Below are positions 31,995 to 34,073 of a DNA stretch of 64,000 bases, one piece after another. Made by a program: the position numbers and the translations under genes. This DNA comes from an uncultured Clostridia bacterium (GTDB lineage Bacteria > Bacillota > Clostridia > TANB77 > CAG-508), in NCBI GenBank assembly GCA_934130975.1, contig CAKOYU010000007.1, forward strand, positions 1,435-65,434, read 5' to 3'. Within the stretch, counting starts at the first letter, position 1. Each line of letters opens with the position of its first letter. Below the pieces are notes generated by a model, which searched no databases, was not told the DNA's origin, and saw only the letters and a program-made list of their open reading frames with translations.

Positions 31995-33617
31995 TTATTT
32001 AGATAACAATATCAAATTGGTCTGCTCGCAATCCTTACCAGCAAAGCACACAATTTTTTCCTTTTGTGGATTCAATATAATAGATAAAAAATCACCATAT
32101 TTTTTCGCAAAATCAGTATGATTTTTAGTATCATTTCTACTAAATTTAAACTCTGTGTCCTGTGGATGACTATGTGCAAATCCGATAAATTCAACCTTTC
32201 CAAGTGAATCCTGATAAACTCTAGCTGACTTTGGTATATTTTCATTTATGATTGCCACCTCATTCATAATCTGATTGATACAAAAGTCGTCCATTGTTGC
32301 CATATTCCCAGCTCGGTTATATAAAATTGTTGGAACAATATATTTCACTAAAGATACTTTACCAAGATTATGTCCTACTAAAGCCACTTGCTGTTCATAC
32401 AAGTTACTTGGATGATATTCTCCATAATGAAAAAAGCTAAATAAATCCTTTGTAGCTTGTGGAGTAAATACAACTGTTTTATTTGCCTTAAAATTTGATG
32501 GCTTAACAGTAATAGTTTCCATTTTTCCATTTTTTCGAAACAATGACATAAACACATCTTCATAGGTTGCATTATCATCAGCAGCTAATTCTATCTTTCC
32601 TTCTAAAAACTTTTTATAACAAAACTGTGGTGTATTTGTTTCAAAATCAAAAGTATGAAAACTATCACCCTTGCAATCAAACCAATATTCACATGTTTCA
32701 CATTGTTTAGCCCTTGTTCTATTAGGATTTCTGTAAAATTCAAACTTATTTTTCCAAACTTCACAAAAATCATCTTCTAAAACATTACCTTGTATCAACT
32801 CTGGTCTCCTTGGAATATTAGGACATCCAAAAATGTCGCCATTTGAAAGAACTGATGCAACATGAATTCCTGTCTCACATTTAAATCTCTTTCCAGTAGG
32901 ATCAAGAGTATATTTTGTATTACCAAAATAATGCGTACAACTCCATACTACCGGGAGCTCCGAAAATTGATGTTTCTTTAAAAAATCAAAAAGATACAAA
33001 TAATCTTCTCTGCTAAGCATCAGATTTTCATTATCCTTCGCTCTTCCAATTGGATCAATTCCACTGATTCTCAATGAATCAATTCCAAACATACTTAATA
33101 GCCGATAAACTTCTGGTAATTCTAAAATATTGTTTTTATTTGCTATAAAAGTCACTTGAATATGTTCAACAAAATTAGCCTTTTTGAGCTTTTCAATAGC
33201 AGAAATGATTTTGTCAAACGAACCTGGTAGATGTCTAAATTCTTCATGTGTCTTTTTCATTCCATCAAGACTAATTGTGATTGTAGACATATGTGTTTTT
33301 TTCATTTTATTAATAATTTCATCTGTTATTAACATTCCATTTGTTACCAATCCCCACTTAAATCCTAACTCGTCTGCATATCCAGTGATTTCAAACAAAT
33401 CCTTTCTCATAAGTGGTTCTCCACCTGTAATGTCTAACATGATTGTTTCTGTTCCAAAGTTTCTAGCTACACTATCAAGTACTTTTTTGAAAGTTTCTGA
33501 AGATAATTCATCTTTTTTACTAGCAGTACATCTACTACCACAATGATCACAAAGTGCATTGCATCGACTAGTTACTTCTAAAAAAAGAGTGTATAATTCA
33601 TATTTTCTATTATTCAT
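31995..33617 (-). CDS. Radical SAM / SPASM-domain enzyme fused to a C-terminal JAB/MPN (JAMM) metalloprotease domain.
   Basis: CNALCDHC (Cx3Cx2C), a SPASM Cys cluster (...KQCETCEYWFDCKG), then a C-terminal E...HSHPQDTEFKFSRND JAMM-like motif. The probable start is the ATG at 33617 after GAGAGGTGAG; the ORF-track TTG at 33632 is unlikely. Confidence 0.65.
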   Translation of the reverse strand: MNNRKYELYTLFLEVTSRCNALCDHCGSRCTASKKDELSSETFKKVLDSVARNFGTETIMLDITGGEPLMRKDLFEITGYADELGFKWGLVTNGMLITDEIINKMKKTHMSTITISLDGMKKTHEEFRHLPGSFDKIISAIEKLKKANFVEHIQVTFIANKNNILELPEVYRLLSMFGIDSLRISGIDPIGRAKDNENLMLSREDYLYLFDFLKKHQFSELPVVWSCTHYFGNTKYTLDPTGKRFKCETGIHVASVLSNGDIFGCPNIPRRPELIQGNVLEDDFCEVWKNKFEFYRNPNRTRAKQCETCEYWFDCKGDSFHTFDFETNTPQFCYKKFLEGKIELAADDNATYEDVFMSLFRKNGKMETITVKPSNFKANKTVVFTPQATKDLFSFFHYGEYHPSNLYEQQVALVGHNLGKVSLVKYIVPTILYNRAGNMATMDDFCINQIMNEVAIINENIPKSARVYQDSLGKVEFIGFAHSHPQDTEFKFSRNDTKNHTDFAKKYGDFLSIILNPQKEKIVCFAGKDCEQTNLILLSK

Positions 33618-33632
33618 ATACTCACCTCTCAA

Positions 33633-34073
33633 CTAGTCAAAGTTAATATGACCTGTTGTTACATAGCTATCATCATCAGTATACTTTTCAGCCTGATTTA
33701 TAGCTTCCTCTACACTCTGTGCCATCGGACAACCGTATAAAAATCTCATTGACATGAAATCAGGATAATCATCTTCATACTGAGGTTCAGGCTCAGGTTC
33801 TCCTTTTACAATAACAATTCTGCTATTTTTTTCAATACCTAATTCGCCTAATGATCGATACTTATCAATACAAATTTCCTCATCCTGCTCTTTCTTGTCA
33901 TCGTTTTCCAAATACACTTTTGTTGTAAGATATGATCGCTGATACGATGAGATATACCCCAAGTCTCTAAGACATGCTTTAAGCTCTATCTCATTGATAT
34001 CAGCAGGAATAGCTACTTCTACATATTCCATCCGGTTGTCAGTTACTTTTACATTAATAAGTTTTTTAGTCAT
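33633..34073 (-). CDS. YukD/EsaB-like beta-grasp (ubiquitin-like) domain protein with an acidic, Cys-containing C-terminal tail. It is translationally coupled to the rSAM-JAB gene.
   Basis: The N-terminal ~95 aa follow the YukD pattern (KVTD...IPADI.I.EL...LG...L.ELGI...S.IVIV). This is followed by an EPEPEPQ linker and the tail YGCPMAQSVEE...TTGHINFD. RBS AAAGGAG. Confidence 0.5.
   Translation of the reverse strand: MTKKLINVKVTDNRMEYVEVAIPADINEIELKACLRDLGYISSYQRSYLTTKVYLENDDKKEQDEEICIDKYRSLGELGIEKNSRIVIVKGEPEPEPQYEDDYPDFMSMRFLYGCPMAQSVEEAINQAEKYTDDDSYVTTGHINFD

Follow-up and report, generated by a model that had tools for sequence, protein, structure and literature searches.

The 64,000-nt stretch of DNA analysed here (hereafter the window) corresponds to positions 1,435 to 65,434 of the Clostridia contig CAKOYU010000007.1, has a low G+C content (~27%), and holds nearly every gene on the minus strand; all coordinates are those of the window unless a locus is named. 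Among housekeeping genes (WhiA, PrmC, and a hemW-like gene upstream; scpB and proS downstream), it contains two adjacent minus-strand open reading frames (ORFs) encoding proteins of 146 and 540 aa, located where a first interpretation made from the DNA letters (the sequence-only reading) had placed them. The large protein fuses a radical SAM/SPASM enzyme to a JAMM/MPN+ (JAB) metalloprotease domain, and the small protein ends in a tail with the motif Tyr-Gly-Cys-Pro (YGCP). Comparison of related loci indicates that the unit present here consists of this apparently bifunctional enzyme and a portable YGCP tail, within a larger clade of enzymes associated with Y-G-x-P motifs, and that the pair is best read as resembling a system for peptides that are made ribosomally and then modified post-translationally (RiPPs). 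The features of the locus and of comparable loci (numbered with the prefix L) are collected in Table 1.

Table 1. Features of the two-gene cassette (window coordinates) and of related loci (locus number:coordinates).
Feature	Position or loci	Strand	Details and basis
Small gene	33633..34073	minus	146 aa; ATG at 34073, stop TAG 33635-33633; presumed substrate/precursor
Ubiquitin-like beta-grasp domain, residues 1-95	33789..34073	minus	strand-strand-helix-strand-strand-strand order
Pro/Glu linker GEPEPEP and tail, residues 96-146	33636..33788	minus	alignments; AlphaFold2 model
Y113-G114-C115-P116 motif	33726..33737	minus	common to every partner ORF of the fusion enzymes
Large gene	31995..33617	minus	540 aa from ATG at 33617; radical SAM/SPASM-JAMM fusion enzyme
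Radical SAM core, residues 14-173	33099..33578	minus	Pfam PF04055, E 4.8e-20
SPASM-type auxiliary Fe-S domain, residues 227-333	32619..32939	minus	Pfam PF13186 and conservation
JAMM/MPN+ metalloprotease domain, residues about 350-540	31998..32570	minus	AlphaFold2 model, Foldseek, PDB profile, conservation
Promoter-like site TTGATT-17-TATAAT, sigma-70-like	34207..34235	minus	10/12 consensus matches; in the 173-nt gap after the hemW-like gene
Ribosome-binding site AAAGGAG	34080..34086	minus	6 nt upstream of the small-ORF ATG; read from sequence
Intergenic ribosome-binding site GAGAGGTGAG	33621..33630	minus	within the 15-nt gap; read from sequence
Intrinsic-terminator-like hairpin, 16-bp stem and T-run	31953..31987	minus	8 nt after the large-ORF stop codon
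Partners: ubiquitin-like domain and acidic tail	window and L001-L010		
Partners: lipoprotein signal peptides with clear lipoboxes	L011, L014, L018, L022, L025, L030, L063		
Partners: amphipathic N-terminal helices, 1-5 tandem copies downstream of the enzyme	L012, L013, L015-L017, L019-L021, L023, L024, L026-L028, L073		
Partners: zinc ribbon, alone or before a further domain	L031, L033, L035, L036		PF13240, E 6e-6 for L035
Partners: other types	L029, L032, L038		
Y-G-x-P proteins adjacent to JAB-less enzymes (examples from L034-L080)	L042:7018-7677, L041:6995-9895, L044:2657-3574, L050:7024-7638, L072:1158-1484, L074:7124-7477, L068:7032-7385		
Recombinase- or mobilisation-like ORFs	L001:10413-12047, L001:4136-5353, L004:1816-3045		similar ORFs in L002, L010, L020, L063

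The N-terminal part of the large protein scored 72.8 bits against PF04055 (cut-off 29.5 bits), placing it in the superfamily of radical SAM enzymes, and has the expected CX3CX2C motif (C19-X3-C23-X2-C26; 33540-33563) that the sequence-only reading had pointed out, with C30 as an additional invariant cysteine. In this superfamily the motif holds the [4Fe-4S] cluster that cleaves SAM, inside a core shaped as a partial TIM barrel. The enzyme has at least 120 full-length homologs with identity down to 43%, and in an alignment of 156 full-length fusion proteins (35-99% identical to the window protein) the radical SAM cysteines were conserved in 154, the remaining two being alignment gaps. The SPASM match (residues 247-309) was barely over its cut-off (21.7 vs. 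21.5 bits). The canonical SPASM pattern, CX9-15GX4C - gap - CX2CX5CX3C - gap - C, provides seven cysteines for two auxiliary clusters; the layout found here is C227, C247-X12-G260-X4-C265, C306-X2-C309-X5-C315-X3-S319, C333, and residues C227, C247, G260, C265, C306, C309, C315, and C333 were kept in every covering sequence. The fourth cysteine of CX2CX5CX3C is replaced by an invariant serine (S319; S, A, or G in the JAB-less relatives described below), and the full SPASM cysteine cluster initially proposed lacks this position. The enzyme appears to be an atypical SPASM protein with one canonical cysteine missing; the invariant residues C227, D318, and H321 could complete cluster ligation.

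The best NCBIfam match was TIGR04133 (269.6 bits over residues 5-338; cut-off 425 bits), which also scored best for all relatives tested (240-371 bits), likewise under the cut-off. Further NCBIfam matches included AhbD, NirJ2, WgkB (132 bits), MftC (131 bits), PapB (95 bits), and PqqE (85 bits), with AhbD, NirJ2, WgkB, MftC, and PqqE far below their cut-offs; the nearest of these families (TIGR04133, AhbD, NirJ2, WgkB, and MftC) are peptide, protein, or cofactor maturases. The nearest solved relatives were cytosylglucuronate decarboxylase and then SkfB (E 1.8e-14; two constructs counted once). TIGR04133 (NCBIfam "rSAM_w_lipo"), which TIGRFAMs pairs with a small lipoprotein family, is a hypothetical equivalog with no characterised member. 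Its enzymes resemble the window enzyme in overall length, in cluster layout, and in having small neighbouring proteins that include some lipoproteins, whereas the window clade differs by its fused JAMM domain and by partners that are defined by a C-terminal YGCP and match no NCBIfam or Pfam family.

The C-terminal part of the large protein carries the JAMM/MPN+ catalytic motif, defined as E-Xn-H-S/T-H-X7-S-X2-D (PMC300881), in the form of E408 (32394-32396) and H482-S-H484-X8-S493-X2-D496 (32130-32174), the last spacer being one residue over the canonical X7. All five residues (E408, H482, H484, S493, and D496) were unchanged in 156 of the 156 fusion homologs. The JAMM-like character suspected from this motif was borne out by structure prediction: the AlphaFold2 model of residues 343-540 had a predicted local distance difference test score (pLDDT) of 93.4 and a predicted template modelling score of 0.91, and the top 50 PDB matches retrieved with it by Foldseek were all JAMM/MPN structures (probability 1.0), the best being a Caldiarchaeum Rpn11 homolog complexed with ubiquitin (6fnn; E 1.3e-8). 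A 31-sequence profile of the same residues, compared with all PDB sequences, matched JAMM/MPN chains only (best E 3e-4), including AMSH-LP, Sst2, STAMBP, an Rpn11-like protein, BRCC36, and CSN6. The PADLOC JAB models gave sub-threshold matches (E about 0.012), and a search for stand-alone relatives of this domain retrieved fragments of fusion proteins only. By predicted fold and by motif, the domain thus belongs to the JAMM/MPN+ superfamily, as a divergent subfamily. The invariance of the JAMM residues and of the cluster cysteines across the fusions argues for two active catalytic domains, and both modules look functional.

For the small protein, AlphaFold2 predicted a beta-grasp fold over residues 1-95 (pLDDT about 80-89), in agreement with the sequence-only reading. 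The more specific identity suggested there, YukD/EsaB (PF08817), was rejected, as no match to it was found in Pfam at E<=1 and the YukD-type structure of ESX EccD appeared in Foldseek only at rank 40; the modelled fold looks generically ubiquitin-like. Searches with Pfam, NCBIfam, and PADLOC returned nothing usable for this protein, the only Pfam match at E<=1 being a chance-level one to DUF7661. Alignments delimited an N-terminal block of ~90 residues, a G-E-P-E-P linker, and a conserved Cys-containing tail with the consensus R-x-L-Y-G-C-P-M-A-Q-S-V-E-E-A-x-N-Q-A-E-x-Y-S-x-x-D-S, in agreement with the tail described initially. Apart from one short helix (residues 121-128), the tail had a pLDDT below 55; it is predicted to be mostly disordered and would therefore be accessible. 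The small ORF is well conserved (102 homologs, 49-99% identical; 20 invariant columns among 60 aligned sequences), and a profile run exhaustively against 1.84 billion representative proteins yielded only 47 clusters at 50% identity, so that the family is narrow.

When 185,579 species, each represented by a single genome, were scanned with the enzyme alignment, 80 loci were retrieved, comprising 38 full radical SAM/SPASM-JAB fusions and 42 JAB-less relatives. The fusion loci come from metagenome-assembled genomes (MAGs) of gut and rumen Clostridia labelled Lachnospiraceae, Ruminococcaceae, or Clostridia, and one (L029) is labelled Methanocorpusculum. A hidden Markov model of the small protein detected a homolog immediately upstream of the enzyme solely in the ten closest loci (L001-L010); the other 28 fusion loci carry at least one small same-strand ORF that adjoins the enzyme and ends in a common motif. 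Taken together, an adjacent same-strand ORF with YG[CA]P located 17-38 residues from its C-terminus was found, in one to five copies, in 38/38 of these further loci. The association of the two genes that the sequence-only reading had asked to be checked is thus recurrent, and the gene-level hallmark of RiPP systems, a precursor beside its modifying enzyme with a conserved motif, is present in all of them.

The conserved element of the partners is a C-terminal [C]-[LY]-Y-G-[CA]-P followed by an extension of 13-34 residues. When 58 partner sequences, including that of the window, were aligned on the motif, Y, G, and P were present in all 58 and C in 56, with Ala in its place in L032 and in the second copy of L018. 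Around the motif, Cys is often found at -2, position -1 is commonly L or Y and position +5 commonly S or A, +8 is usually hydrophobic, and +18 frequently carries a second Tyr; the form C-[LY]-Y-G-C-P, with Cys at -2, occurs in 28/58 partners. In the window protein, F111 (33741-33743) replaces the Cys two residues before Tyr, a position at which most close homologs differ from it.

The N-terminal parts of the partners appear mutually unrelated and fall into the types listed in Table 1, four partner types besides that of the window giving no usable match in Pfam, NCBIfam, or PADLOC. The exhaustive search added the same tail on a helical N-terminal domain (P0262) and on a zinc ribbon plus a ubiquitin-like-looking segment (P0264); a ubiquitin-like domain is confirmed only for the window clade (L001-L010), and sequence suggests one in a few others. 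When profiles of the window ubiquitin-like family and of the zinc-ribbon partners were compared, the alignment (probability 97%) was limited to the last strand and the tail. Tail type co-varies with enzyme clade: enzymes 61-81% identical to that of the window are accompanied by ubiquitin-like domains with acidic tails, those 41-45% identical by short peptides with basic tails of the type YYGCPNSKKAKKLQL..KxYR (N-S-K-K-A-K-K-L-Q-L), and those 36-40% identical by zinc-ribbon and other proteins with CLYGCPxSxxIEK tails. All-against-all clustering of the neighbours in the 38 loci revealed no third conserved gene (exporter, immunity, E1/E2, or chaperone). The pairing of a ubiquitin fold with a JAB domain, which the sequence-only reading called canonical for ubiquitin-like processing, did not hold up on this comparison as the organising logic of the locus, given that the YGCP tail is constant, the fold is confirmed only in the L001-L010 clade, and no E1 or E2 neighbour accompanies it; the conserved companion of the fusion enzyme is the tail, not the ubiquitin fold.

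Two unusual partner records were also observed. P0258 (254 aa) is an odd case: its four nearly identical repeats include CLHGCPVAQSV, in which His replaces Tyr, and it may be an assembly or repeat artefact. L029 (DALTWG010000001.1, a Methanocorpusculum sp. MAG) encodes a fusion enzyme and two upstream partners ending ...CLYGCPNPTELSGV... and ...CLYGCPEPKELVSV...; its presence in a MAG of a methanogenic archaeon reflects either horizontal transfer or a binning error.

The enzymes of the 42 JAB-less loci (35-54% identical over residues about 1-350) also match TIGR04133 best (307-371 bits). In these loci, Y-G-x-P occurred at a rate of 1.11 per 1000 aa in the ORFs adjacent to the enzyme vs. 0.049 in the other ORFs (23-fold), and 25 of the 42 loci had at least one same-strand neighbour with the motif. 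In gut Bacilli, the neighbour contains one to four repeats, ~20-40 residues long, of the type K-Y-D-I-x-P-E-D-N-V-P-Q-x-V-Y-G-[IV]-P, while the MAGs of Patescibacteria, Chloroflexota, Methanocella, and deltaproteobacteria have small Pro-rich neighbours with YGPP or YGVP, several of which carry a hydrophobic, membrane-spanning-looking segment. Over this wider clade, the residue that follows Tyr-Gly is C, A, I, V, T, P, S, or Y, and Gly occupies this position in no listed motif. Seven partner proteins of relatives gave no usable family match, and the partners of the JAB-less enzymes match no Pfam family. In contrast to these proteins, the partners in the JAB clade have a single motif, which is always near the C-terminus and is followed by a conserved extension. 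The enrichment of Y-G-x-P beside enzymes without a JAB domain points to this motif as the target of the radical SAM/SPASM core.

Taken as a whole, these observations suggest that the two genes probably form a self-contained RiPP-like maturation cassette in which the tail of the small protein is modified by the radical SAM domain and cut by the JAMM domain, and we infer that the tail is a substrate of both. The disordered C-terminal tail would present Tyr113-Gly114-Cys115-Pro116 to the neighbouring enzyme's radical SAM/SPASM domain, which would cleave S-adenosylmethionine reductively and use the resulting 5'-deoxyadenosyl radical to abstract a hydrogen within or next to the motif and thereby modify it; the JAMM/MPN+ zinc protease of the same polypeptide would then hydrolyse a peptide bond in the tail. 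In the window clade, the ubiquitin-like domain would serve as a carrier and possibly, by analogy with ubiquitin on Rpn11, as a docking handle on the JAMM domain. A maturase acting on the tail, combined with JAB-mediated cleavage, had been raised as a hypothesis by the sequence-only reading; the comparative data favour it.

As to the chemistry, a Tyr-centred cross-link to the +2 residue, giving a three-residue ring, is a tentative proposal by analogy; it is favoured because Y, G, and P are invariant while the +2 residue varies yet in every case has a beta-carbon. Such three-residue rings and Trp-Gly-Lys links are known products of radical SAM/SPASM enzymes, with WgkB acting on a Trp-Gly-Lys motif and three-residue cyclophane ("triceptide") maturases introducing cross-links. 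Similarities to the triceptide maturases and to the WgkB family (named in PMC11851443) include an apparent unit composed of an aromatic residue, a small residue, and a residue with a beta-carbon, as well as multi-copy precursors and repeated motifs. Unlike in these systems, scores against the corresponding models are far below the cut-offs, the residue after the triad is invariably Pro, a JAB domain is fused to the enzyme, and the carriers are protein-sized. Epimerisation or a Tyr decarboxylation-type reaction is a possible alternative. A Cys thioether, as in sactipeptides and ranthipeptides, is possible in this clade and unlikely as a family-wide reaction, because the Cys is replaced by Ala in 2/58 partners and by I, V, T, P, or S in the partners of JAB-less enzymes. 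The sactipeptide and ranthipeptide maturases (SkfB, CteB, PapB/SCIFF) are likewise radical SAM/SPASM enzymes encoded beside Cys-containing peptides, but the cassette differs from them in its single, replaceable Cys, in the absence of an N-terminal RiPP recognition element (RRE), and in the Ser at the fourth position of CX2CX5CX3C.

On the site of cleavage, we are evenly poised as to whether the JAB domain takes off the extension on the C-terminal side of the motif, and rather doubt that it removes a leader. Removal of the extension is slightly favoured because this extension is specific to the JAB clade, because the lipoprotein partners make sense only if their N-terminal part is kept and exported, and because JAMM enzymes act at the C-terminal end of ubiquitin-like substrates.

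Several points weigh against a cassette of this kind or against its details. Adjacency and motif conservation are no proof of a substrate relationship, and no RRE that would bind the tail could be recognised in the enzyme. Cys115 is replaceable (by Ala in the two partners mentioned and by I, V, T, or P with JAB-less enzymes), and the cross-link is a proposal by analogy. At the level of family assignment, the window enzyme is nearest to TIGR04133 yet not a member by the NCBI cut-off, and its match to Pfam Prok-JAB (PF14464; 14.3 bits, E 0.038) lies below the 25-bit gathering score. Known JAMM enzymes cut after the Gly-Gly of folded ubiquitin-like proteins, and no such conserved site is present here; modification of the lipoprotein-type partners would have to take place in the cytoplasm, ahead of their export, which would be unusual. 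Finally, tandem multi-copy precursors and a conserved C-terminal block fit a released peptide rather than a removed extension.

This last point leads to a classical RiPP pathway, in which the last 20-35 residues, from YGCP or a position just before it onwards, would be the released modified peptide and the JAB domain would cut off the N-terminal leader (ubiquitin-like domain, helix, or zinc ribbon). In the window clade this product would carry negative charge, in the short-peptide clades it would be cationic and amphipathic, and it might act as a signal or a bacteriocin. The C-terminal block is indeed the most conserved region of the partners and their N-terminal parts are interchangeable, as many as five precursor copies are arrayed in tandem downstream of the enzyme (L017, L023, and L073), as in many RiPP clusters, and the basic tails resemble amphipathic cationic peptides. 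However, the core of a typical RiPP is the variable part of the precursor and is here the conserved one, no exporter or immunity gene is conserved in the 38 loci, and the genuine lipoprotein signals of L011, L014, L018, L022, L025, and L030 would be pointless if removed in the cytoplasm. A Pro-Gly pair often stands 6-7 residues ahead of the motif and would be a suitable site for a Gly-specific JAMM cut, but the window protein itself lacks it. As a complete account of the cassette, we regard leader removal as unlikely.

It is improbable that the pair instead represents a ubiquitin-like modifier system, in which the JAB domain would expose the C-terminus of the beta-grasp protein for conjugation or sulfur-carrier chemistry and the radical SAM domain would be an accessory. 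JAB processing of a beta-grasp protein has precedents in QbsD/QbsE, Mec+/CysO, and the JAMM/SAMP pairs. The side-by-side encoding of a beta-grasp fold and an active-looking JAMM domain is in line with these, as are the conserved Gly within the motif and, in the window clade only, a T-T-G located 3-6 residues from the C-terminus. This T-T-G is lost in distant ubiquitin-like members (L009 and L010; P0239, P0244, and P0245), most fusion-enzyme clades pair with peptides of 47-87 aa, too short for a beta-grasp fold, and no E1, E2, or other conserved neighbour was found in the 38 loci (E1 genes elsewhere in the genomes were not searched for). The small protein also has neither of the defining traits of ubiquitin-like modifiers and sulfur carriers, a Gly-Gly directly after the fold and an E1-like partner: its lack of a C-terminal Gly-Gly, noted from the start, was confirmed, and a linker of ~20 residues lies between the fold and the conserved Tyr-Gly. 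Because it lacks both the Gly-Gly terminus and an accompanying E1, the small protein, despite its ubiquitin fold, is no ubiquitin-like modifier as the term is usually understood. In prokaryotic JAMM and beta-grasp pairs, such as HvJAMM1/SAMP1 (PMC4443979), QbsD/QbsE, Mec+/CysO, the Caldiarchaeum Rpn11-ubiquitin pair, and the operons surveyed in PMC1779556, a JAMM protein with E..HxH..S..D is encoded beside a ubiquitin-fold protein, as is the case here; the window cassette differs from them in that its JAMM domain forms one polypeptide with a radical SAM enzyme, the enzyme family as a whole can dispense with the beta-grasp domain, and the conserved motif lies ~20 residues beyond the fold.

Synthesis of a cofactor or other small molecule, with Tyr-Gly(-Cys-Pro) being cross-linked and excised in the manner of PQQ or mycofactocin and the rest of the protein serving as a disposable scaffold, has a similarly low probability. 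The Tyr-modifying radical SAM/SPASM enzymes MftC and PqqE are among the NCBIfam matches listed above, but these matches reflect general superfamily similarity. Absolute invariance of a motif of three to four residues is typical of cofactor precursors (PqqA, MftA) and is also observed here, and both known pathways include a peptidase. On the other hand, no tailoring, redox, or transport genes are conserved in the 38 loci, no MftB/PqqD-type chaperone is present, and a motif that occurs within the large repeat proteins of JAB-less relatives would be an odd precursor format. As mechanistic parallels, mycofactocin (MftA/MftC/MftE) and PQQ (PqqA/PqqE/PqqF) nevertheless appear to be the closest to the cassette, with the cross-linking RiPP maturases also close. 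They share with it a radical SAM/SPASM enzyme, a Tyr motif close to the C-terminal end of a small protein encoded by an adjacent gene, and a trimming metallopeptidase (here proposed). They differ in having an RRE-type chaperone (MftB/PqqD) and downstream tailoring genes, neither of which is present here, and in the motif, which is GVY or E-x3-Y there and Y-G-C-P here; moreover, the peptidase of the window is a JAMM domain fused to the maturase, and its substrate has a folded domain.

Another possibility that seems hardly likely is that the JAB domain does not cleave the neighbouring protein and instead docks the tail or ubiquitin fold, or acts on another cellular substrate, leaving the radical SAM domain alone to act on the small protein. 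Some domain must bind the substrate of an enzyme without a recognisable RRE, and non-catalytic MPN domains are common as scaffolds (Rpn8, CSN6), but invariance of five catalytic and zinc residues throughout the fusion homologs is unexpected for a purely binding MPN domain. That the two genes are chance neighbours, or that the small ORF is not a real gene, can be dismissed in view of the partner ORFs in every further fusion locus, the conservation of the small protein, its confident beta-grasp prediction, and the ribosome-binding site of its own.

Two further candidate identities were rejected. For anti-phage defence (CBASS Cap2/Cap3, Bil), PADLOC gave only generic viperin-like radical SAM matches (pVip) and sub-threshold JAB matches with E about 0.01, and no ligase-like conserved neighbour was found. 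Sulfatase-type formylglycine maturation by an anaerobic sulfatase-maturating enzyme (anSME, a SPASM enzyme) acts on the motif C/S-x-P-x-R, which the C-P-x-[SA] of the partners does not fit.

The two genes of the window are arranged for joint expression as proposed earlier, with 15 nt between the TAG of the small ORF and the ATG of the large ORF and a ribosome-binding site (GAGAGGTGAG) in this gap; an in-frame TTG at 33632 is an alternative start of the large ORF and would give a protein of 545 aa, with five extra residues. A promoter of their own had also been assumed. A sigma-70-like site was found in the upstream gap, but the promoter scan as a whole gave 22 sites vs. 17 expected, which is not above chance; the promoter is therefore a weak call and only plausible, and read-through of transcription from hemW into the cassette is possible. 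With the promoter-like site, the ribosome-binding sites, and the terminator-like hairpin, the pair looks like an independent two-gene transcription unit amid housekeeping genes. The only match over the gathering score in an Rfam scan of the whole window was one tRNA (9371-9451, minus strand).

The window flanks (hemW, scpB, and proS) were not seen beside any of the relatives, which argues against anchoring to housekeeping genes, and the related cassettes sit in unrelated genomic contexts. In the window, the cassette region (32001-34000) has a G+C content of 0.32 and an AT skew of -0.07, compared with about 0.26 and -0.22 in the flanks; together with the unrelated contexts, this composition fits acquisition by transfer. 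In several MAGs, ORFs judged from their sequences to resemble serine recombinases, tyrosine integrases, or Mob/Pre proteins lie within 5 kb of the cassette, suggesting that it may be carried on integrative or mobilisable elements. The sole match among 2.9 million viral contigs was a decayed cassette (L081:427-967; IMGVR_UViG_3300010163_001736), in which the ubiquitin-like-domain ORF (97 aa) continues into the 90 residues that end the JAB domain, with deletion of the tail, of the entire radical SAM/SPASM part, and of half of the JAB domain; a tyrosine-integrase-like ORF is located ~2 kb away. Given the lack of any other conserved neighbour, the unrelated contexts, and the mobility genes, the cassette therefore moves as a unit, and the YGCP tail is its only constant companion.

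Close to the cassette, the ~320-nt gap between the terminator and scpB contains a perfect 26-nt inverted repeat (arms at 31755-31780 and 31879-31904, separated by 98 nt). Folded as RNA, it has a free energy of -55.2 kcal/mol (z = -9.6), and it has no Rfam match. A third arm-like copy with 3 mismatches is found in the next intergenic gap (29378-29403), where none is expected by chance; the repeat could be an intergenic element similar to miniature inverted-repeat transposable elements (MITEs) or repetitive extragenic palindromic (REP) sequences. On the other side of the cassette, a 19-nt AT-rich stretch (34229-34247) is 84% identical to one arm (31879-31897); the arm-like sequences bracketing the cassette may be due to chance in AT-rich DNA or may be the trace of an insertion.

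The sequence-only reading had not recognised this arrangement as described. No published account of a radical SAM-JAB fusion, the YGCP motif, or TIGR04133 was found in the full-text literature searched, which leaves most subscription journals outside its coverage, so that an earlier description is possible; one candidate prior description, PMC7159879, proved to be unrelated. In a broader interpretation, which we hold to be possible without calling it probable, the TIGR04133-like enzymes would constitute a multi-phylum protein-modification system that places a radical-derived modification on Tyr-Gly-x-Pro, of which the version found in gut and rumen Clostridia captured a JAMM domain and first modifies, then clips, a portable YGCP tail on diverse carriers (ubiquitin-fold domains, lipoproteins, membrane-seeking helices, and zinc ribbons), the product being either a new C-terminally modified protein or a released peptide.

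If correct, this proposal would assign a JAMM/MPN+ protease, a type otherwise familiar almost exclusively in ubiquitin-like systems, to a radical SAM maturase as its dedicated peptidase. A four-residue motif (Y-G-C-P, or Y-G-x-P in the wider clade) would mark the substrates of an uncharacterised radical SAM clade that ranges over Clostridia, Bacilli, Patescibacteria, Chloroflexota, Planctomycetota, deltaproteobacteria, and methanogen MAGs, and a function would be assigned to the TIGR04133-like family, which is named at NCBI solely by its accession number. With only two genes and small proteins involved, new post-translational chemistry would be tractable in this system, and the portability of the tail suggests its possible use as a handle for enzymatic tagging or processing. 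Since gut metagenomes of humans, rabbits, and ruminants commonly contain the cassette, its products could bear on the physiology of gut microbes and on the competition among them.

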